Shown: one piece after another, positions 2,462-49,024 of the stretch | How positions within the stretch are numbered: position 1 is the first letter of the stretch | Layout of the letters: every line of letters starts with the position of its first letter | NCBI GenBank assembly: GCA_031552685.1 | Contig: JAVBMI010000019.1 | Span: 2,771-66,770, forward strand | Origin: Oscillospiraceae bacterium | Lineage (GTDB): Bacteria > Bacillota > Clostridia > Oscillospirales > Oscillospiraceae | Length of the DNA stretch: 64,000 nt | Direction: 5' to 3' | Made by a program: the position numbers and the translations under genes | Notes under the pieces: generated by a model | Databases searched by the model: none | Told to the model about the DNA's origin: nothing | What the model saw: only the letters and a program-made list of their open reading frames with translations

Positions 2462-2650
2462 ATGGCGAAATGTGAAGTTTGCGGGAAGGGCGTTTCCTTC
2501 GGTATCCAGGTCAGCCATTCGCACAGACGCTCCAATCGTACATGGAAGCCCAACGTCAAGCGCGTCAAGGTTGTCATGAACGGAACCCCCAAGCATGTCT
2601 ACGTTTGCACCCGTTGCTTGCGCAGCGGTAAGGTTACCCGCGCAGTATAG
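2462..2650 (+). CDS. rpmB: 50S ribosomal protein L28
   Basis: [37 protein letters not shown] is the classic L28 sequence. The product is 62 aa and there is a GGAGG RBS. Confidence 0.95.
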
Positions 2651-2664
2651 ATATTGCTTTTACG

Positions 2665-2704
2665 AACACCGCTTTGCTTTTGCAGGGCGGTGTTTTTCTT
2701 TTTT
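2665..2704 (+). terminator. Rho-independent terminator after rpmB
   Basis: Stem aacaccgc/gcggtgtt followed by a T-run. Confidence 0.7.
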
Positions 2705-2815
2705 GAGATAAGTCGCGGCAATGTGCTTGCCAAAACGCTGCCGGGTGTTTACAATGGTAATGTGTAATTATAAAGCACTTTTTCCGCAAGCAAAGGAAAG
2801 GAAGGGCTACAAAAG

Positions 2816-3766
2816 ATGGCTGAAACATATTCCGTTTTGCTCTCACAATTGGTTGAGGAGCATAAGCTGAAAATAGAAAATGCGTCTGCTGATTTTGCCA
2901 CAGCAAAAATAACCAGCATGGCGGTTGGTAGACCCGGTCTGCAATTCGCGGGGTTTTACGAGTATTTTGACCCTGAGCGTATTCTGGTTTACGGCAAGCA
3001 GGAACACACCTATCTTGAGCGTCTTTCTCCGGAGGAGAGATTCGCATCTGTTGCCGGACTCATGCTCCGCAGGCCCTGTGCGCTGATTGCCTGCCACGGT
3101 GTGGGCGTACTGCCGGAAATGGTAGAACTGGCGGCAAAATATGATGTTAACGTGCTTTCCTCTGAGCATGACACCTCGGAGTTTATGGCGCGGCTTATCA
3201 GCGCGCTGCACGTTTATCTTGCCCCCCGACAGACGATACACGCGGTTTTGGTTGAGGTCTACGGCGAAGGGCTTCTGATAATGGGCGATTCGGGCATAGG
3301 AAAGAGCGAAACTGCACTCGAGCTTATCAAGCGAGGTCACCGGCTCATCGCGGACGATGCGGTGGAAATCCGCCGTATTTCGGCGGACACTTTAGTCGGG
3401 CAGTCACCGCCGCTGATTCGGCATTACATGGAATTTCGAGGCATCGGCATAGTCAACGCCCGTTATATTTTCGGCGTAGGTGCCGTAAAATCTACCCAGA
3501 GCATCCATTTGGCGGTTCGCCTTGAAAACTGGGAAGACTATAAGCCCTACAACCGTTTGGGGGCGGATACGGAATACACTGAGATTCTTGGTGTTGGTGT
3601 TCCCTCCGTTACTATTCCTGTGCGGCCGGGCCGAAACCTCGCGGTAATTCTTGAGCTTGCCGCCATGAACAACCGCCAGAAAAAACTGGGCTACAACGCT
3701 GCCCAGGATTTAGAGGAGCGTCATGACGCCGGAATAGACAGCGGCTTTGACACTGATTTTTATTGA
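2816..3766 (+). CDS. hprK: HPr kinase/phosphorylase
   Basis: Walker A GDSGIGKSETALELIKRGHRLIADDAVEI and the overall HprK/P architecture. Confidence 0.9.
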   Translation: MAETYSVLLSQLVEEHKLKIENASADFATAKITSMAVGRPGLQFAGFYEYFDPERILVYGKQEHTYLERLSPEERFASVAGLMLRRPCALIACHGVGVLPEMVELAAKYDVNVLSSEHDTSEFMARLISALHVYLAPRQTIHAVLVEVYGEGLLIMGDSGIGKSETALELIKRGHRLIADDAVEIRRISADTLVGQSPPLIRHYMEFRGIGIVNARYIFGVGAVKSTQSIHLAVRLENWEDYKPYNRLGADTEYTEILGVGVPSVTIPVRPGRNLAVILELAAMNNRQKKLGYNAAQDLEERHDAGIDSGFDTDFY

Positions 3767-11087: not shown

Positions 11088-11098
11088 TAACGTTATTT

Positions 11099-11577
11099 CA
11101 AGCGTCCAACACTTGGGCAGGCGCGGGCACTACGTGCCCTGCTGCCCGTATAAGGGGGAACCGGTTCTTGCAAAGAAACGGTTCCCCCTTATGATCCCCT
11201 TGGCGAAGAAGCCCAAAGGGAGAACCCTTTGGAAACCCCTTAATGAACGCTTCGCTCTGTTCTCACGTGCCGCTCCGCGGACAGGTTCGCCGCTGCCTGC
11301 GGAGCGCGGCTGCATCATGCTACGGGCAACAAGTTGCGCCTGCACCAAAGCTAAGCGAGCGGTTCAGACGCGCAGTGGTAATCTGCCCTGTGGCACGGTA
11401 CGCAGTTAGCGAGCGGATGGTATTGCTTGCATTTGTGGGGAGGCAATATTTTCTTTAGGAGAGTCAAGAGAGGGCATTTATTTTTCTAAAAGAAAGCCCT
11501 CTTTTGCCCTGCGCGGGAAGCGCAAAATAATAAAAACGGGTTGCCCCCTGCGGGTAGCAGGTAAATAAATAAAAATA
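11099..11577 (+). repeat. Hairpin-rich mosaic intergenic element, copy 1
   Basis: The first ~125 nt are almost identical to 48499..48625. The core with two AGCGAGCG boxes and the 3' part also match copy 3. It contains a series of perfect or near-perfect hairpins. Confidence 0.85.
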
Positions 11578-11647
11578 TAGAATAATGTCAATTATCCACA
11601 GCCTCTGCCTTCACATATACTGTCTTATATAAAAAAAGGAGATGTGT

Positions 11648-12486: not shown

Positions 12487-12999
12487 TGCTGTCAGACGAA
12501 TGCCGAACTTATTTTTCACGCGGCGGAGCTTCTCAGTCATCGCCGGAGCGATAAGCCAGAGGAACAGCGCAGTCGCCGCCGCCTGGATAAGGTCAAAGGG
12601 CAGACCCAGCGCATATGCGGCCAAAATCGCCTGAAAAGTGGGATTTGCCTGTGAAATTAGAATACCCGCCGGATTCATAATGCCACCGTAGACAACAATG
12701 GTTGCCGCCGCGCCGAAAATGCAAAGCGCCGTCCGGCTCTTCTCAAGCGTTCCGCGGTAAAAAACCAGACCTGCCATAAGGCCCACAAGACCCATGGCAA
12801 ACATCTGCCAAGGCGTCCAAGGCCCCTGGCTCGCGAAAAAATTGGAAATAAACGCGCCCAGCGCGCCGACGATAAAGCCAGCCTCCCCGCCGAAACACGC
12901 GCCTGTGATGATAATGACCGCCAGAGTCGGCTTGAACTGCGGAATCATGTAAAAAGCCGCCCTGCCCGCCACTGCGAAAGCGCAAAGAACAGCAATCAC
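12484..12999 (-). CDS. ECF transporter S (substrate-capture) component-like membrane protein, possibly the C-terminal part of a larger fusion
   Basis: Five predicted hydrophobic helices (GFIVGALGAFISNFFASQGPWTPWQMFAMGL). It is the last gene of the ECF operon. The ORF starts at a GTG that is in frame with the upstream ATPase ORF, separated by a single TAA. Confidence 0.65.
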   Translation of the reverse strand: MIAVLCAFAVAGRAAFYMIPQFKPTLAVIIITGACFGGEAGFIVGALGAFISNFFASQGPWTPWQMFAMGLVGLMAGLVFYRGTLEKSRTALCIFGAAATIVVYGGIMNPAGILISQANPTFQAILAAYALGLPFDLIQAAATALFLWLIAPAMTEKLRRVKNKFGIRLTA

Positions 13000-17589: not shown

Positions 17590-17795
17590 ATAACATAGCT
17601 GTCCGTCCCCGTACGACGCGGGGCGGACAAATAAAACGTGCAGGTCTTCTGACTCGCGTCCTTGAGGCGTCCTTTCCCTGCCTTCCCGATTTCTCAGTGA
17701 CCGGCTTTCACCGACGAGAGAGGACAAAACGCATACAGCGGCGGTACCGTCCGGGATTCTCACCCGATTCTCTATTCTCCGCCAAGGGCCATACG
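17590..17795 (-). promoter_or_regulatory. Cobalamin (B12) riboswitch
   Basis: The minus strand reads AATAGAGAATCGGGTGAGAATCCCGGACGGTACCGCCGCTGTA ... GGTGAAAGCCGGTCACTG ... GGGAAGGC ... GAGTCAGAAGACCTGC. This matches the conserved core and B12-box region of the cobalamin riboswitch class. It lies directly upstream of the DUF4430/ECF operon. Confidence 0.82.
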
Positions 17796-17814
17796 CCCGG
17801 GGCGGCACACATTT

Positions 17815-18942
17815 TTATTCGGTTTTATTGCCGGGATTAGTAGTCCGTCCTATACCATAGGGCTTGCGTACATGGACATATATTGAGATTATACCACTTA
17901 TTATAAACATTGTATAGAAATTAATAAATCGTGACAGCAGCATGCCCGGAAGAATCGATATCCCGAACAGCGGGCGCATTAGCAGCAAATAACCGCTCTC
18001 AGACGCACCGACGCTGCCCGGCAGCGGCATAAAGGAAACGGAAATATAGAGAACAGCGCTCACAGCGACAAAGTCAAACACGCTAAACTCGGAAAAGCCG
18101 AAGGATTTATAGACAAAATAAGGAACAAGGTGGTACAAAATCAGCTGCAGCATAGTTGCGCCCGTTATTGAAAAGAAGCGTTTGGGGCTCTCCCTGATAA
18201 GTGAAACCCCTGCCTTGACCTCGGATACATACTTGTCAAGTTCGCGCAGGGCCTTTTCCCGATTTTTGATGATTCGGATTTTTGCCAGCAGCTTGACTAC
18301 TCCCCGCAGCAGCTTGGTAAGGATTTTTTCGGAGAACATCACCCCCAGCAGGAGCAGTAGCATGAAAAAGTTGATGGCAAAACCAAAGAAAAACAGGATA
18401 AACAGATTTGGGTCAACGGAGGAGATATAGTTCCACTTAACAATAACCATGGAAAGACCCAAAACCACCACGGCGAGCTGATAGGTGATGTTTGTCACGA
18501 ACAAAATGAGCGTGGTTTTTGAATAGTGGATTCCATCACGCACCAAATAGAAAAACTGCATGGGCTGTCCGCCGGAGGAGGAGGGAGTTACACCGCTGTA
18601 AAAAAAGCCGAGAGCGGAATACTGCATCATCTCGCGAAAACGCAGGCGCAGCCGAATCCAGTTTGCCGCCATGCCGATGATGACGCCCTGAACAATAAGA
18701 CTCAGCAGCATTGAGAGAACCCCCGCTCCGATATAGGGCAGCCTGACCTCCTGCAAAACATTGAAAACATCAATGAGCGAGCGGTCTTTGAAAATTACAT
18801 AGAACGTTACAGCGATGAGCACGATCAGGAAAAGAAAGCTCAGCACATAGTTTCTGATTCGTTTTTTAGGAGGCTTTACAGCGACTTCCGGTTCGTCCGG
18901 AGGGGCGCCGTAGAGTTTTTCAGCTTTGATTTCTTCAGACAT
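17815..18942 (-). CDS. Flippase-like / lysylphosphatidylglycerol synthase TM-region family membrane protein (UPF0104)
   Basis: Polytopic membrane protein with a charged N-terminus (MSEEIKAEKLYGAPPDEPE) followed by about 8 TM helices. The start at 18942 has an AAGGAA RBS. Confidence 0.7.
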   Translation of the reverse strand: MSEEIKAEKLYGAPPDEPEVAVKPPKKRIRNYVLSFLFLIVLIAVTFYVIFKDRSLIDVFNVLQEVRLPYIGAGVLSMLLSLIVQGVIIGMAANWIRLRLRFREMMQYSALGFFYSGVTPSSSGGQPMQFFYLVRDGIHYSKTTLILFVTNITYQLAVVVLGLSMVIVKWNYISSVDPNLFILFFFGFAINFFMLLLLLGVMFSEKILTKLLRGVVKLLAKIRIIKNREKALRELDKYVSEVKAGVSLIRESPKRFFSITGATMLQLILYHLVPYFVYKSFGFSEFSVFDFVAVSAVLYISVSFMPLPGSVGASESGYLLLMRPLFGISILPGMLLSRFINFYTMFIISGIISIYVHVRKPYGIGRTTNPGNKTE

Positions 18943-23479: not shown

Positions 23480-25383
23480 AAGACGGACTAATAAAAGTAG
23501 CTGCAGGAACGCCGGAGCTCCGCGTTGCGGACGTGGAGTTCAACAAGCGTGCTATCCTCGATTTGATTGAGCAGGCTGGGGAAAAGGGCGTCAAAATCCT
23601 TGCGCTGCCTGAGCTGTGCCTTACCGGCTACACCTGTGCAGACCTCTTTTTTCAGGATGCTCTGCTAAGAGGTGCAGAGGATGCGCTTGCGCAAATTCTG
23701 GCGGAGACAAAAGACCTTGAGCTTTTTTTCGCTCTTGGAATCCCAGTTGGACAAGCAGGACAGATTTTCAACTGCGCGGCAGTATGTAACCGAGGCAGGC
23801 TGCTTGCCCTTGTGCCGAAAACATACATTCCGGACTACGGCGAATTTCAGGAAAGCCGCTGGTTCGCTTCCGGCGGAGGAGTTTTCGAGGAGCTGGTTTT
23901 TGCCGGACAGAATACCTGTCTGGGTGCGAAGGTGATTTTCCCCTGCCCCGCTCTGCCGGATCTCTGCTTAGGGGTCGAAATCTGCGAGGACCTCTGGGTC
24001 GCGGCGCCGCCTTCATCGGCTCTGGCGGGCTGTGGGGCAACGATTATTTTAAATCTGTCGGCAAGCAGTGATGCAGCGTACAAAGCGGCATACCGCCGCG
24101 AGCTGGTAAAAACCCAGTCGGCGCGTCTCATCTGCGGCTATGTTTATGCCGGAGCCGGACAGGGCGAGAGCACAACTGATGTAGTGTTTTCAGGCCATAG
24201 CATGATTGCCGAAAACGGCGAGCTGCTGCGTGAATCGATTTATGAAAACGGGATGGCGGTGTCTGAAATTGACATCTCATACCTGCAAAACGAGCGCAGA
24301 AGAATTAAATACAGCAATGAGTGCGAAAAGGGGGACTGTGCCCGCTTCCCTTTTGACCTCAGTCTGTCGGAGACTTATATTTGCCGCGCAATTCCTCGGA
24401 ATCCCTTTGTACCCGAGGACAGAGAACTTCGCTTTGAGCGCTGTGAGGAAATTTTAAACATTGCCTCGCACGGTCTGAAGAAACGCATCGCCCACACAGG
24501 CTCAAAGTCGCTTGTACTGGGCGTTTCCGGTGGTTTGGACTCCACGCTTGCGATGCTCATTTCCGTACTTGCCCTCGACATGCTCGGCATGCCGCGAGAG
24601 AGCATAATCGCGGTGACTATGCCCGGCTTCGGCACGACAAGCCGCACCCGCGACAACGCCGTGATTTTGGCGGAAAGTCTTGGAGCTGCATTGCGGACAA
24701 TTTCCATAGAAGCCGCTGTCCGTCAGCACTTTGAAGACATTGGACATGATGATAAGTGCCGCGATGTTGTCTACGAGAACGCGCAGGCGCGCGAGCGCAC
24801 TCAGGTGCTTATGGATATCGCCAACGGCTGCGGTGGCCTGGTTGTAGGCACCGGCGACATGTCCGAGCTTGCGCTTGGTTGGGCCACATTCAACGGCGAT
24901 CACATGAGTATGTACGGCGTCAACTCCGGTATACCAAAAACCCTGGTGCGCTATTTGGTTGAGCACTGCGCCGAAAAGACAGATAACAAGCAGATTGCGG
25001 AAGTATTGCGCGATATTCTGGCAACGCCCGTATCGCCGGAGCTGCTTCCCTCTGAAAATGGAAAAATATCCCAAATGACCGAGGAACTGGTTGGACCATA
25101 TGAGCTTCACGACTTTTTCCTGTTCCATATGATACGCCGCGGCAGCGAGCCAAAGAAGATTCTGAGAATGGCCGGGCATGCCTTTGCGGGCGAATATGAC
25201 GCAGACACTATTCTCAAGTGGCTGCGGATCTTCATCAGACGCTTTTTCTCTCAGCAGTTTAAGCGAAATTGTCTTCCTGACGGGCCAAAGGTGGGTTCCC
25301 TCTCACTTAGCCCACGGGGAGATTTCAGGATGCCGTCGGACGCGGTCAGCAGTCTGTGGCTTAAGCAGCTCGATGCTGAATGA
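23476..25383 (+). CDS. nadE: Glutamine-dependent NAD+ synthetase
   Basis: The product is 635 aa. It has an N-terminal CN-hydrolase domain (ALPELCLTGY) and a C-terminal NAD synthetase domain with a PP-loop (GVSGGLDS). Confidence 0.9.
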   Translation: MKDGLIKVAAGTPELRVADVEFNKRAILDLIEQAGEKGVKILALPELCLTGYTCADLFFQDALLRGAEDALAQILAETKDLELFFALGIPVGQAGQIFNCAAVCNRGRLLALVPKTYIPDYGEFQESRWFASGGGVFEELVFAGQNTCLGAKVIFPCPALPDLCLGVEICEDLWVAAPPSSALAGCGATIILNLSASSDAAYKAAYRRELVKTQSARLICGYVYAGAGQGESTTDVVFSGHSMIAENGELLRESIYENGMAVSEIDISYLQNERRRIKYSNECEKGDCARFPFDLSLSETYICRAIPRNPFVPEDRELRFERCEEILNIASHGLKKRIAHTGSKSLVLGVSGGLDSTLAMLISVLALDMLGMPRESIIAVTMPGFGTTSRTRDNAVILAESLGAALRTISIEAAVRQHFEDIGHDDKCRDVVYENAQARERTQVLMDIANGCGGLVVGTGDMSELALGWATFNGDHMSMYGVNSGIPKTLVRYLVEHCAEKTDNKQIAEVLRDILATPVSPELLPSENGKISQMTEELVGPYELHDFFLFHMIRRGSEPKKILRMAGHAFAGEYDADTILKWLRIFIRRFFSQQFKRNCLPDGPKVGSLSLSPRGDFRMPSDAVSSLWLKQLDAE

Positions 25384-25392
25384 TAGAGGCAA

Positions 25393-25430
25393 TAAAAAAC
25401 AGGGCAGTCGCTTGACTGCCCTGTTTTTTG
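25393..25430. terminator. Bidirectional terminator between nadE and serS
   Basis: The sequence is aaaaaacagggcagtc-gctt-gactgccctgtttttt. Confidence 0.8.
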
Positions 25431-25438
25431 TTCAATTC

Positions 25439-26764
25439 TTAGCCGCAGGTGAAGGCGCTTTTGATATTCACCTTAAGCTGATCCTCTTTTGTAATCATCT
25501 CGCGGCCTCTCAAAAAGCGCTTGAGCGCTTGCGGCACAGCGACTGAGCCGTCTGCCTGCTGGTACTGCTCAACGATTGCGGGCAGGATGCGGCTGGTTGC
25601 CAGACCCGAGCCGTTGAGGGTGTGGACATACTCGATTTTGCCGTCCTCGCGGCGGTAACGGATGTTGCCGCGGCGCGCCTGATAGTCCCGAGCGTTGCTG
25701 ACGGAGGATACTTCCTTATAGCCGTTCATCGAGGGAATGTAAACTTCGATGTCGTATGTCCGCGCCATGGAGGCGGAGCAGTCGCCAGCAGCGAGCTTTA
25801 CTGTGCGGAATTTCAGACCGAGACCCTTCACAAGGCTTTCCGCGCGGACAACAAGCTCGTCAAAGGCTTCGTTCGACTGTTCCGGAGTAGTTACCTGGAA
25901 CATCTCGACCTTATTGAACTGATGACCCCGGATCATGCCGCGCTCATCAGAGCGGTAAGAGCCCGCTTCCCTTCTGTAACAAGGAGTGTAGGAAACATAC
26001 TTGCGCGGAAGCTCAGCCTCGGTAAGTATCTCATCGCGGTGCAGACTGGCAAGCGCGGTCTCAGCTGTGGGCAGCATGAAGTGACGGTTTTCTCCATCCT
26101 CGTCAACCCAATAAACCTCGTCCTTGAACTTTGGGAACTGCCCTGCGGTCAGACCGCAATCATAGCCCAGCATGTGCGGCACCATTACTATTTCATAGCC
26201 GTCCATCTCGTGAGTTTCGATGAAGTAATTGATTAGGGCCCACTCAAGGCGCGAACCCAGACCGCGGTATAGCCAGTAACCATTGCCGGAGAGCTTTGCG
26301 CCCCTCTCGTAGTCGATTATCCCCAGGCTTGTGCATAGGTCAACGTGGTTTTTTATTTCAAAATCGCGCTTAGAGCTGCCGCCATAGAAGCAGATCGGCT
26401 GGTTATTCTCTTTTCCGCCGGGCTTCAGGTCCGGATCGGGCAGATTCGGTAGAGAGAGCATGAGGTCGGTATATTCATCCTCAACAGACTTCAAATCAGC
26501 GTCAAAAGCCTTGATTTCTTCCTTCAGAGCATTCATGCGCTCGATGAGTGCCGAGACGTCCTTGCCCTCTTTCTTTAGCTGTGGTACATCCTTTGAGGCC
26601 CTGTTCTGCTCGCTTTTAGCGGCTTCGGTCTTTTGGATGAGCTCACGGCGCTGTGTGTCCAGCACCAAAATTCTGTCGACCGCGCTGTCGCAATCCACTT
26701 CCTTGGCCTTCAGGCGGGTTTTTACCTCATCCGGGTTCTCACGTATCAGTTTAATATCAAGCAT
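25439..26764 (-). CDS. serS: Serine--tRNA ligase
   Basis: MLDIKLIRENPDEVKTRLK gives a coiled-coil N-terminus. A class II core is present (TAGQFPKF, GSGLATSRILPAIVE). Confidence 0.95.
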   Translation of the reverse strand: MLDIKLIRENPDEVKTRLKAKEVDCDSAVDRILVLDTQRRELIQKTEAAKSEQNRASKDVPQLKKEGKDVSALIERMNALKEEIKAFDADLKSVEDEYTDLMLSLPNLPDPDLKPGGKENNQPICFYGGSSKRDFEIKNHVDLCTSLGIIDYERGAKLSGNGYWLYRGLGSRLEWALINYFIETHEMDGYEIVMVPHMLGYDCGLTAGQFPKFKDEVYWVDEDGENRHFMLPTAETALASLHRDEILTEAELPRKYVSYTPCYRREAGSYRSDERGMIRGHQFNKVEMFQVTTPEQSNEAFDELVVRAESLVKGLGLKFRTVKLAAGDCSASMARTYDIEVYIPSMNGYKEVSSVSNARDYQARRGNIRYRREDGKIEYVHTLNGSGLATSRILPAIVEQYQQADGSVAVPQALKRFLRGREMITKEDQLKVNIKSAFTCG

Positions 26765-38516: not shown

Positions 38517-38785
38517 TAAAAAAATAAGCCCCGTCTCATATAAGAGACGAAGCATAAACTCCGCGGTACCACTCAAATTGACAGATAAACTGTCCGCTTT
38601 CGGCGTCTTAAAACGCCGCCTCTTTGATAACGGTGAGGAAATCCGGTCACACCTACTGCCATGGGCTTTCAGCTGACTGCTCAAGGGTGAGTTCGCAACT
38701 TTTTCGCATACCGTTTCGCACCGCACAACGGCTCTCTGAAATGCTCGGAAGCTGCTTTGTCCCTGTCACTGCATTTGTGTTATTG
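38517..38785 (-). promoter_or_regulatory. T-box leader, probable Leu specifier (CUC)
   Basis: The minus strand has AGAGA in stem I, a specifier loop GAA-CUC-A (CUC at 38691..38689) and the T-box sequence AATTTGAGTGGTACCGCGGAG. The terminator is gcttcgtctc/gagacggggc plus a U-run. It lies upstream of leuA. Confidence 0.85.
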
Positions 38786-38791
38786 CAATAA

Positions 38792-38820
38792 ACCTTACAA
38801 CATGTTTATGCGTTTGTCAA
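38792..38820 (-). promoter_or_regulatory. Putative sigma-A promoter of the leu T-box leader
   Basis: The minus strand has TTGACA, a 17-nt spacer and TAAGGT. Confidence 0.45.
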
Positions 38821-38922
38821 GGAAAAGTTTCTTCTCGTTATTCCAAACGACTTGCATCCCCCCGGCGGGGACAGGCTCTTTTTAAATGCAACGGGTTGAG
38901 GTGAGGTTTTCAAGCGCACAAC

Positions 38923-38955
38923 GCTTGGGCGACAGCGGGAGCTACGCTCCCTGCC
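38923..38955 (+). repeat. Left arm of the perfect 33-nt inverted repeat of copy 2
   Basis: gcttgggcgacagcgggagctacgctccctgcc is the exact reverse complement of 39398..39430. Confidence 0.95.
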
Positions 38956-39397
38956 TTTCCACGTCAAAACCATTTTACTCGCGCTAAGAGCCGCGCTTCG
39001 CGCGGTTGCGCTCTGTACAGCGCTGCGGCGCTAGTCTTTTTGATGTCGTCAAAAAGAGAAACCGTTTTAACAATTCGAAAGAGAAAAACCGCCTGGGGGC
39101 GTTTCGAGTCGCCCCCAGACCCCCTAACGACCAAAAGGGGGCTGACACCGCCCCCCTTGGATCCCCCTTGTGGCGAGGGACGAAAGTTTTCGTCTGTGCC
39201 GCAGAGCAGCGAGCGATTATGTGGCGCAGTGCTCACCTGCCCTGTGGCACGCTCCGCAGTCAGCGAGCGGACGGTTTGCTTGTTCTAATGGCTTCGGCGG
39301 GGGTTTCCAAAGGGGTTACGCCCCTTTGGGCTTCTTTTCTTTGGAGTGAAGAGGGATTTCTTTTCTCGCAAGAAAAGAAACCTCTCTTCAAAGGGGC

Positions 39398-39430
39398 GGC
39401 AGGGAGCGTAGCTCCCGCTGTCGCCCAAGC
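39398..39430 (-). repeat. Right arm of the perfect 33-nt inverted repeat of copy 2
   Basis: ggcagggagcgtagctcccgctgtcgcccaagc is the exact reverse complement of 38923..38955. Confidence 0.95.
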
Positions 39431-39464
39431 ATTGGAGATTGCTGAGTTTCAATCAAGAACCCTC

Positions 39465-39493
39465 TTGTAACAAGCCCAAAATCTTGGTATACT
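39465..39493 (+). promoter_or_regulatory. Putative sigma-A promoter of the DUF815 ATPase gene
   Basis: TTGTAA, a 17-nt spacer and TATACT. Confidence 0.45.
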
Positions 39494-40767: not shown

Positions 40768-40789
40768 GTGTCTAATCCAGATTTTAAAT

Positions 40790-41080
40790 GCGTTGATGGG
40801 AAAAAGTAGGCCGATACCCACTTCAGAGAGCTGCCGGTCGGTGCAAGGCGGTGTGGAGGTCGGAGGAAAGTCATCCCGGAGCGGTTTGCCGAAGGGCCGG
40901 TCACGCCTGTCTGTGTAAGCAAAACGGTTGCGCCCGTTACAGCGCAGGACGTTGACAGACGTTCAAAGTGGTTTTTTCAATGGCAGTGCAGCGCCGGAGA
41001 AAGAGCAATAAGAGTGGTACCGCAGGGGTATTTTGCCTTTGTCTCTTGATTTATGAATTAGAGACATGGGCGTTTTTTGT
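40790..41080 (+). promoter_or_regulatory. T-box leader, probable Val specifier (GUC)
   Basis: It has AGAGAGC in stem I, a specifier loop GAAA-GUC-A (GUC at 40870..40872) and the T-box sequence AATAAGAGTGGTACCGCAGGGG. The terminator is tgtctct/agagaca plus tttttt. It lies upstream of ilvB. Confidence 0.8.
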
Positions 41081-48312: not shown

Positions 48313-48440
48313 AGTATTTACCTCCCTTTTTGACAAGGTCACAAAACAGCCGTCTGCGCGAAACGGCTGTTTTCGTTTGTAAATAGTATGCGGTTCTCGG
48401 ACGAGGTATGCCCTGAACGGAATAATTACATTATTGCAAA

Positions 48441-49012
48441 TGTCCCCCCGTGGGGACTGGCTTTTTCCAACACGCTGAGTTGAGGGCTACATTATTCCAA
48501 CGTCCAACGTTGGGGCAGGCGCGGGCACTATGTGCCCTGCTGCCCGTATAAGGGGGAACCGGTTCTTGCAAAGAAACGGTTCCCCCTTATGATCCCCTTG
48601 GCGAAGAAGCCCAAAGGGGTGCAACCCCTTTGGAAACCCCAAGTAGACGCTCGCGTGGGCTCGCTCTGCATGCGGCCGCCGCAAGCGGCGGATATCCCCG
48701 CCGCTGCCTGCGGAGCGCGGCTACTGCAAGCGTCGGGCAACAAGTTGCGCCACCACCGAATCTAAGCGAGCGATTATGTGGCGCAGTGCTAATCTGCCCT
48801 GTGGCACGGTTGGCAGTTAGCGAGCGGATGGGTTGCTTGTATTTGTGGCGATGTTATATTTTCTTTGGGAGAGTCAAGAGAGGGCATTTCTTTTTTAAAG
48901 AATGCCCTCTTTTGCCCTGCGCGGGAAGCGCAAAATAATTAAAAATGTGTTGCTCCCTGCGGGTAGCAGGTAATATATAAAAATGGGTTACCCCCTGCAT
49001 GGGGGGACTTTT
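48441..49012 (+). repeat. Hairpin-rich mosaic intergenic element, copy 3
   Basis: The core 48499..48985 is co-linear with copy 1. The 5' leader hairpin (tccccccgtgggga plus T-run) matches the 5' leader of copy 2. The 3' end module is duplicated. Confidence 0.85.
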
Positions 49013-49024
49013 GGAATAATATCG

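Follow-up and report, generated by a model that had tools for sequence, protein, structure and literature searches.

What is the stretch of about 600 non-coding nucleotides (nt) that lies between the leuA T-box promoter and the DUF815 gene of an Oscillospiraceae bacterium? It belongs to a 64,000-nt stretch of contig JAVBMI010000019.1, referred to here as the window, and is the second of three related, hairpin-rich elements found there (copies 1, 2 and 3). The original prediction left two readings of copy 2 side by side: a large structured RNA, or a mobile element of the MITE kind (short for miniature inverted-repeat transposable element). The element bounded by inverted repeats is now the better supported of the two, owing to its dispersed copies, recurring architecture, absence in relatives and lack of strand preference, and the structured RNA is weakened. 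Copy 2 belongs, as a full-length representative, to a repeat family that is present in several gut Oscillospiraceae-like Clostridia. With a probability of roughly 0.55, this is a new family of MITE- or BOX-like mosaic repeats, that is, selfish non-autonomous DNA whose hairpins are kept as DNA palindromes. Rfam 15 contains no such family, and no description of it turned up in literature searches.

Copy 2 had been thought to start at 38851. The terminal motif places the start at ~38838 instead, and the end lies at ~39444. The parts of the element are as follows.

38838 to 39444, unstranded: the whole of copy 2, two half-units tail to tail, bounded by inverted module A
38838 to 38846, plus strand: terminal motif TTATTCCAA, the left end of copy 2
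38857 to 38883, plus strand: 'pre' hairpin TCCCC/GGGGA followed by a run of T, read from the sequence and homologous to 48442-48466 of copy 3
38911 to 38927, plus strand: first small hairpin of module A, CAAGCG-cacaa-CGCTTG
38919 to 38955, plus strand: left inverted-repeat arm, a truncated module A with the hairpin GGGAGC-tac-GCTCCC at 38937-38951
39034 to 39184, plus strand: interior block with hairpins H1 (39035-39057), H2 (39093-39118) and H3 (39131-39160), homologous to elements in other genomes
39208 to 39283, plus strand: block D, with which the left half-unit ends in a conserved 3' block
39284 to 39299, unstranded: junction of the half-units, without homology to the other copies
39300 to 39336, minus strand: inverted module C, with the hairpin CCAAAGGGG/CCCCTTTGG at 39307-39329
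39347 to 39390, minus strand: inverted module B, a 20-bp hairpin forming a 90% inverted repeat
39398 to 39434, minus strand: right inverted-repeat arm, a complete module A with its outer stem GGGCG/CGCCC intact

The terminal motif is of the type TTATTSCAA, which has seven matches in the window against 1.4 expected; four of these are at element ends (38838, 48431, 48492 and, on the minus strand, 49011). It also opens a unit in L011, one of the comparison contigs and records that were fetched, which are labeled L001–L014. The counterpart of the 'pre' hairpin in copy 3 (48442-48466) was classed as terminator-like by a terminator scan, and hairpins of the form ATGTCCCC..GGGGAC in L006 and L008 resemble it. 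The interior had been described as a chain of hairpins and this is what is found, with hairpins at 39093-39118, 39180-39195 and elsewhere. Module C is terminator-like on the plus strand (site 39306-39330).

The exact 33-nt inverted repeat that first drew attention to copy 2 (38923-38955 and 39398-39430, 442 nt apart) was recovered by a repeat search and by within-window blastn (E=6e-12). It forms the core of arms of 37 nt, 38919-38955 and 39398-39434, which differ by one mismatch (97% complementary) at the same spacing of 442 nt. When read from the alignment, the left arm is without the 3' strand of the outer stem. Because the match has sharp edges and the left module A lacks this strand, the exact agreement between the A modules is most readily explained by a recent copy in inverted orientation or by a gene-conversion tract, and not by a conserved closing helix.

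The other two copies supply the context in which this architecture can be understood.

11092 to 11589, plus strand: copy 1, directly after the dnaE stop codon
48430 to 49020, plus strand: copy 3, between yabP and a gene of 290 amino acids (aa), with the plan of copy 1

Within-window blastn aligns copies 1 and 3 over ~500 nt at 84% identity. They appear to share a two-half plan, in which a left half of the order A-B-C-X-D is followed by an inverted right half. The left half of copy 1 follows this order, and in its inverted right half a terminal ATTATTC motif is accompanied by small GC hairpins, by a hairpin at 11451-11509 that resembles B and by a linker rich in purines. Copy 3 has a terminal inverted repeat of its own (23 nt, 87%; 48430-48452 and 48998-49020), which is built from the 'pre' hairpin module. 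As the original prediction held, the 5' end of copy 2 matches these copies in the same orientation, module A at 38908-38954 being 77% identical to 11096-11142. It had also held that the modules following the 5' hairpin return inverted at the 3' end, and they do, as an A-B-C block: module C (39300-39336) is 95% identical to 48640-48604, and the long hairpin B and the second A are inverted relative to copies 1 and 3. A further shared segment, the 76-nt block D, had escaped it; 39208-39283 matches 48765-48840 at 89% and 11354-11429 at 83%, both in the same orientation. Copy 2 is therefore no odd variant. It follows the two-half plan with another combination of halves.

The building block of the family is an oriented half-unit that begins at its 5' end with a TTATT-type motif and one or two small GC hairpins, continues with a ~20-bp hairpin ('B'), a purine-rich linker and at least one further hairpin, and closes with a conserved 3' block. 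Two half-units placed tail to tail give an element of 500–700 nt with inverted-repeat ends. In this scheme the left half of copy 2 is pre-A-H1-H2-H3-D and its right half an inverted A-B-C of the subtype seen in the left half of copies 1 and 3.

This construction bears directly on the RNA readings. A large RNA closed by a long helix is made less likely by a closing inverted repeat that is made from differing modules, A in copy 2 and 'pre' in copy 3. A smaller RNA can also be imagined: each half-unit would be a structured non-coding RNA of ~300 nt (a small RNA, or a 3' untranslated or terminator-proximal RNA), paired half-units would be RNA genes that converge on a common terminator region, and the hairpins would owe their conservation to the function of the RNA. 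We consider this unlikely, while recognizing that several observations speak for it, among them the strict orientation of the half-units and their distinct 5' and 3' ends. Against it, half-units combine variously, and in copy 2 the 5' boundary of block D runs through the helix GTTGCGCCAC/GTGGCGCAGT of copies 1 and 3, so that one strand is left without its partner.

Further material for an RNA lies in the stems, which are compensated within the genome and across genera and are accompanied by conserved loops and linkers. The two compensated base pairs that had been noticed in the 5' hairpin are real: hairpin A changes from GGGCAC/GTGCCC to GGGAGC/GCTCCC, and a third compensated pair, A-T to G-C, was found in the outer stem. 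The first small hairpin shows two more (CCAACG/CGTTGG in copy 3, CAAGCG/CGCTTG in copy 2). The long hairpin B had been said to have an almost entirely different stem that still pairs. It does still pair, with seven double changes, but the difference was overstated, as the loop-proximal part is kept and 9 of the 14 outer pairs differ between copy 2 and copies 1 and 3. These nine comprise 7 double compensatory changes, 1 wobble and 1 broken pair in a stem-by-stem comparison by hand. Comparison of H1-H3 with L006 and L008 gave 3 counted pairs with double compensatory changes, and several were seen by eye. As the B hairpins fell out of register under MAFFT, pairing was counted hairpin by hairpin with a script, except that copy 2 was compared with copies 1 and 3 by hand. 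Finally, the substitutions that separate copies 1 and 3 affect 23% of unpaired columns and 7% of paired ones, which also favors an RNA. A three-way covariation that joined the top of hairpin B to the purine-rich linker was dropped, since it was out of register in copies of the L009 and L011 types.

Compensatory changes are to be expected just as much if the hairpins are DNA palindromes. Even without selection, template switching between the arms of a hairpin can give rise to such apparent compensation, and it can both make and preserve hairpins of this kind (PMC8794818). The changes seen across genomes mean that single-strand structure matters at some level.

An RNA should be distinguishable from a palindrome by its strand, and on this point the half-unit RNA fares poorly, as the two strands are symmetric in stability and in the use of G-U pairs. 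Copy 2 folds far more stably than its shuffles on either strand (z = -12.9 on plus and -13.4 on minus), and the whole element reaches -282.0 and -282.6 kcal/mol on its two strands. Across 13 units, the mean sense-minus-antisense difference was +1.5 +/- 11 kcal/mol, with the sense strand favored in 6 of the 13. In 12 copies of the B hairpin, 224 pairs were Watson-Crick, 9 were G-T (seven of these a T-G at the stem end), 4 were A-C and 2 were of other types. Within the stem proper there were 2 G-T and 4 A-C pairs, so there is no wobble bias.

Searches for a described RNA gave nothing. In Rfam 15, none of the three copies had a match above chance level, permissive thresholds included, and scans of L006, L011 and L012 at gathering and permissive thresholds returned chance-level matches only. 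A transfer RNA or transfer-messenger RNA reading was also tried, and none was found. A coding reading was rejected: no reading frame survives the indels (1, 2 and 9 nt) by which copies 1 and 3 differ, the longest open reading frame (ORF) of copy 2 (154 aa) has no Pfam match, and a query of concatenated six-frame peptides had no match among 5.8 billion proteins. The Rfam matches above the gathering threshold in the window all lie outside the elements; they are T-boxes at 38540-38778 (minus strand, leuA) and 40784-41049 (plus strand, ilvB) and a cobalamin riboswitch at 17622-17822 (minus strand).

Signals for transcription are divided between the two sides. In favor of an RNA, copies 1 and 3 carry a promoter-like site, TTGCAA-16-TATGAT, inside hairpin B (11168-11195 and 48566-48593), which points into C-X-D-E, and they also have, at 11465-11506 and 48875-48914, a terminator-like hairpin followed by four T's, which was read by eye and was not flagged by the terminator scan. 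Opposed to this, copy 2 has not kept the promoter-like site in its inverted B, and no conserved promoter is found upstream of the units. The half-unit RNA is further opposed by the absence of the elements from equivalent sites of relatives.

These sites were compared at all three copies. Downstream of dnaE, the window has ~554 nt, as compared to 289 nt in L006, 67 nt in L007 and, in L005, 185 nt that include a simple terminator. Between yabP and the 29x-aa gene, where the window has 712 nt, L004 has 222 nt and L007 has 52 nt. Upstream of DUF815, where the window has the element, L003 has 10 nt to another gene and L004 has 344 nt. Sensitive blastn at the dnaE, yabP and DUF815 sites of the relatives found no similarity to the elements. 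Copy 3 is an insertion within conserved synteny. The DUF815-ilv block is differently placed in the relatives examined and, because its neighborhoods differ, copy 2 lies at a synteny breakpoint.

The family was then traced in other gut genomes. A fold-stability scan of the fetched relatives flagged hairpin-rich intergenic stretches, among them L006 2779-2926, which is collinear with the interior block of copy 2 (39034-39184; Smith-Waterman score 87.5, as compared to 23.8 +/- 3.0 for shuffles). H1, H2 and H3 hold their order, loops and linkers across genomes, and their stems vary with compensation. A profile of H2-H3 (nhmmer) matches L006, L009, L010 and L011 with E from 7e-23 to 1e-18. In all, the interior block matches L006 and L008-L011, so it is not unique to this locus. 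A weak match in a phage database proved to be the interior block in MT836034.1 (L011). This record is labeled 'UNVERIFIED: Bacteriophage sp.' from human feces and is a fragment of a bacterial chromosome with alaS, comEC, holA, rnmV and glnS. MT837348.1 (L012) comes from the same study and is equally dense in the repeat family. In L006, the chain at 2483-3180 adjoins a four-gene insertion between rpmB and hprK (a helix-turn-helix protein and three unknown ORFs), which is missing in L005 and apparently also in the window.

Further support for the two-half architecture came from a profile of the B hairpin and linker. The matches, with their strands, are L012 550+, 1063-, 3417+ and 4486-; L011 6982+, 7520-, 9413+ and 10452-; L009 9287+ and 10328-; and L014 12640+ and 13177-. 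There are four copies each in the 7 kb of L012 and the 15 kb of L011, as compared to three in the 64 kb of the window. Convergent pairs spaced 513-538 nt apart enclose no ORF and make up an element with inverted repeats at its ends, which is also the geometry of copy 2. In these genomes the half-units mostly stand tail to tail, and the resulting elements measure 550-700 nt. The arms measure 61 nt at 93% in L012, 389 nt apart, and 42 nt at 79% in L011, and both L011 and L014 carry inverted-repeat pairs like that of L012. The expectation that further copies of like structure would exist is thus borne out by the inverted-repeat, two-half architecture in L011, L012 and L014. Homology between the pairs of L011 and L012 extends along their length, and the halves of a pair may be of differing subtypes.

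Upstream of glnS, L009, L010 and L011 are alike only as far as ...AATGAAATATTA, that is, to 7462, 11989 and 7588, respectively. Beyond this point L011 continues with the element pair and rnmV, and L009 and L010 continue with other DNA. In L014 the same pair as in L011 stands in another flank (12541-12575). The site in L009, L010 and L011 is a rearrangement breakpoint exactly at the element end and not a clean empty site. The ORF downstream of glnS differs among strains.

Wider convergent pairs, with a spacing of 1040-1070 nt, have between them a small ORF that encodes 53-64 aa without a known domain. The half-units might also be viewed as a new class of element that acts in single-stranded form, either as a widespread ~300-nt RNA of gut Oscillospiraceae or as mobile DNA guided by its hairpins through an HUH-type or other enzyme. 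The suggestion is a tentative one and is less probable than selfish repeats kept as DNA palindromes. In the hairpin-guided case, paired half-units could be long terminal repeats that are able to carry small ORFs as cargo, such as the 53- and 64-aa genes (L010, L011, L012). The small ORFs seen beside or between convergent half-units are at L011 9653-9847 (minus strand, 64 aa), L010 14018-14176 (minus strand, 53 aa) and L012 4039-4185 (plus strand, 49 aa); in L010, only one flanking half-unit falls inside the sequence. The products of 49-64 aa have a helical look and AEN or SAN as their last residues. No Pfam threshold is passed by any of them, and none has a homolog in the window.

Several findings weigh against selfish mobile DNA. 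Among the ~50 ORFs of the window scanned against Pfam, which omit a few small or uncertain ones, no transposase, recombinase, reverse-transcriptase or HUH domain was found. Empty sites are known at the level of the genus only, the source species being represented by one record and one sequencing run. Copy 2 has no target-site duplication, and the direct repeats that flank copy 1 (AATAAT) and copy 3 (GGAATAAT) overlap the ATTATT motif of the inverted repeat and the AT-rich flanks. Scans for exact patterns of block D (CCCTGTGGCACGNNNNGCAGTNAGCGAGCG) and module C (GAAGCCCAAAGGGN{3,9}CCCTTTGGAAACCCC) in genome, metagenome and viral contigs found nothing. A B-core profile built from the gut copies alone is weak on the window (best E=0.025), yet 12 of its 19 matches fall inside the three elements, the best two being the E hairpin of copies 1 and 3 on the minus strand. 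Lastly, loops and linkers that are conserved across genera, together with covarying stems, fit a functional RNA too. The L011 pair is likewise without a target-site duplication, and viral-contig scans with the E and B modules and blastn against plasmids found nothing.

As for the hallmarks of a MITE, the inverted repeats, lack of coding capacity and dispersed copies are present, whereas a clear target-site duplication and a cognate transposase (the latter among the window ORFs scanned) were not found. Mobility is inferred from the distribution of the family, its absence at equivalent sites of relatives and its association with breakpoints. The repeats may spread as non-autonomous DNA through an enzyme encoded elsewhere, which would recognize the hairpins, possibly on single-stranded DNA. 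Alternatively or additionally, template switching between the arms could regenerate the pairing.

The setting of the copies within the window raises two further explanations. The three elements occupy its three largest intergenic gaps, in a segment that is otherwise housekeeping in nature: the ORFs scanned include grpE, hrcA, hprK, murB, whiA, dnaE, proS, nadE, serS, parAB, the leu and ilv operons, dnaB and ftsH. The DUF815 and LeuA proteins of this organism, an uncultured Oscillospiraceae-like Clostridium, are confined to the source record and a single sequencing run (SRR23967709); the nearest relatives have 69% identity for DUF815 and 77-82% for DnaE. The placement of copy 2 between the leuA T-box promoter and the DUF815 gene, as originally given, is confirmed by the promoters on its two sides. 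That of the leuA T-box leader was read from the sequence as TTGACA-17-TAAGGT on the minus strand, with its -35 box at 38815-38820, and copy 2 begins only ~18 nt beyond this box. The DUF815 promoter is at 39465-39493. The two core promoters are divergent and both lie outside the inverted repeat.

The first explanation is that the elements are DNA structures recruited by the host, in the manner of repetitive extragenic palindromes (REPs) and the bacterial interspersed mosaic elements (BIMEs) built from them. REPs and BIMEs are bound by DNA gyrase and integration host factor. The elements described here would serve as sites for nucleoid proteins or gyrase, as cruciforms, or as bidirectional terminators and insulators, and would now be largely immobile. 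The position of copy 2 exactly between divergent core promoters, that of copy 1 directly after a stop codon and the strand-symmetric folding all agree with this. So does an excess of terminator-like sites on both strands of copy 2 (7, as compared to 2.3 expected), and BIMEs can act as transcriptional attenuators (PMC3049150). We nonetheless judge this explanation improbable, as the units are hundreds of nt long and composed of unlike hairpins and not of repeated 20-40-nt REPs, no GTAG or CGTC tag is present at the foot of a hairpin (a criterion given in PMC3733652), and the dispersal of the copies is left unexplained. If the elements are selfish repeats, terminator-like hairpins on both strands probably insulate the divergent leuA and DUF815 promoters as a side effect.

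The second explanation is an inverton, in which flipping of the 442-nt segment enclosed by the 33-nt arms would alter the expression of leuA or DUF815. The exact repeat, with an arm length and spacing typical of invertons, and the position between two divergent genes invite this idea. In addition, two short-read contigs of SRR23967709 in Logan (L002 and L001), the sole other assembly of this organism, end inside both arms, at 38952 and 39401. The breaks would be expected from a k=31 assembly graph alone, this being the value that Logan assemblies presumably use. The core promoters lie outside the arms, a promoter scan found no promoter-like site between 38956 and 39397, and the scan of the window ORFs turned up no gene for an invertase or a recombinase. 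The arms are moreover a module of a dispersed repeat family, and the inverted-repeat pairs of other genomes are imperfect (79-93%). An inverton is thus very improbable.

Among known systems, the closest analogues of the family are pneumococcal BOX elements, MITEs in general and REP/BIME mosaics. BOX elements (boxA-boxB-boxC of Streptococcus pneumoniae) are modular, measure 67-637 bp and have terminal inverted repeats (PMC3049150). The family shares with them an intergenic, non-coding and modular nature with variable modules and sizes that reach 600 nt, ends that pair as inverted repeats in a tight fold, restriction to a lineage with many copies, and a probable effect on co-transcribed genes (PMC3049150). 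It differs in that no sequence similarity is seen by eye (the BOX models were not applied), in that target-site duplications are reported for BOX and no clear one is seen in the copies here, and in its composition of two oriented half-units that are unlike each other, measure 150-450 nt and consist of a series of differing hairpins. The GC content of the elements is also about that of the genome and they are not AT-rich.

With MITEs such as Correia of Neisseria, bcr1 of Bacillus cereus and Nezha, the family has in common its terminal inverted repeats, a small size without coding capacity, copies that are dispersed over intergenic sites, a secondary structure predicted to be strong, and effects that it may have as a terminator or promoter (PMC3184786, PMC10969869, PMC3049150). 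In contrast to MITEs, neither a target-site duplication nor a related insertion sequence with matching ends was found here, and the inverted repeats, with a length of 60-100 nt, are imperfect and made of hairpins, with arms that may differ in subtype. REPs, BIMEs and REPINs, which are linked to the IS200-like RAYT enzymes, resemble the family in their palindromic units, conservation of structure over sequence, occurrence in both orientations and in mosaics, and location near gene 3' ends; recognition of hairpins on single-stranded DNA would be a plausible further parallel (PMC3733652). REPs are 20-40 nt long and bear a GTAG or CGTC tag (PMC3733652), whereas the units here are 150-450 nt, ten times longer, and have TAC or GTAG only in loops (GGGAGC-TAC-GCTCCC, CCTGC-GGGTA-GCAGG). 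There is also no tandem alternation of one palindrome, and no RAYT gene was found among the window ORFs scanned. Overall, the family fits only part of the definition of a MITE and falls outside that of a REP in unit size and tag. Large RNAs (OLE, GOLLD, ROOL, HEARO/omega RNA and raiA) are similar in being several hundred nt long, with many hairpins and covarying stems, and in occurring in Firmicutes and gut metagenomes. Unlike these, the elements have no Rfam 15 match, no strand preference, no conserved architecture within the genome and no conserved context.

The family appears to be abundant in at least some gut Clostridia. Such elements fragment short-read assemblies, as is seen where the Logan contigs stop inside the arms. 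As copy 2 and the L011 pair lie at synteny breakpoints, the repeats could affect genome rearrangement, and terminator-like hairpins between core promoters could affect local gene expression. The elements also offer a natural case in which hairpins diverge by compensated changes with no sign of selection on an RNA strand, and this bears on the extent to which 'covariation' can come about at the level of DNA.

Two minor observations concern hairpins elsewhere. At L006 14920-15140, two adjacent three-hairpin units can be seen by eye, each with a terminator, ATGTCCCC..GGGGAC and GTCCGTGGGCC..GGCCCACATGGAC; Tandem Repeats Finder did not confirm them. In the window, the convergent ends of nadE and serS (25251-25550) contain two 200-nt segments with a fold z of about -3.2 to -3.3, which are unrelated to the repeat family.

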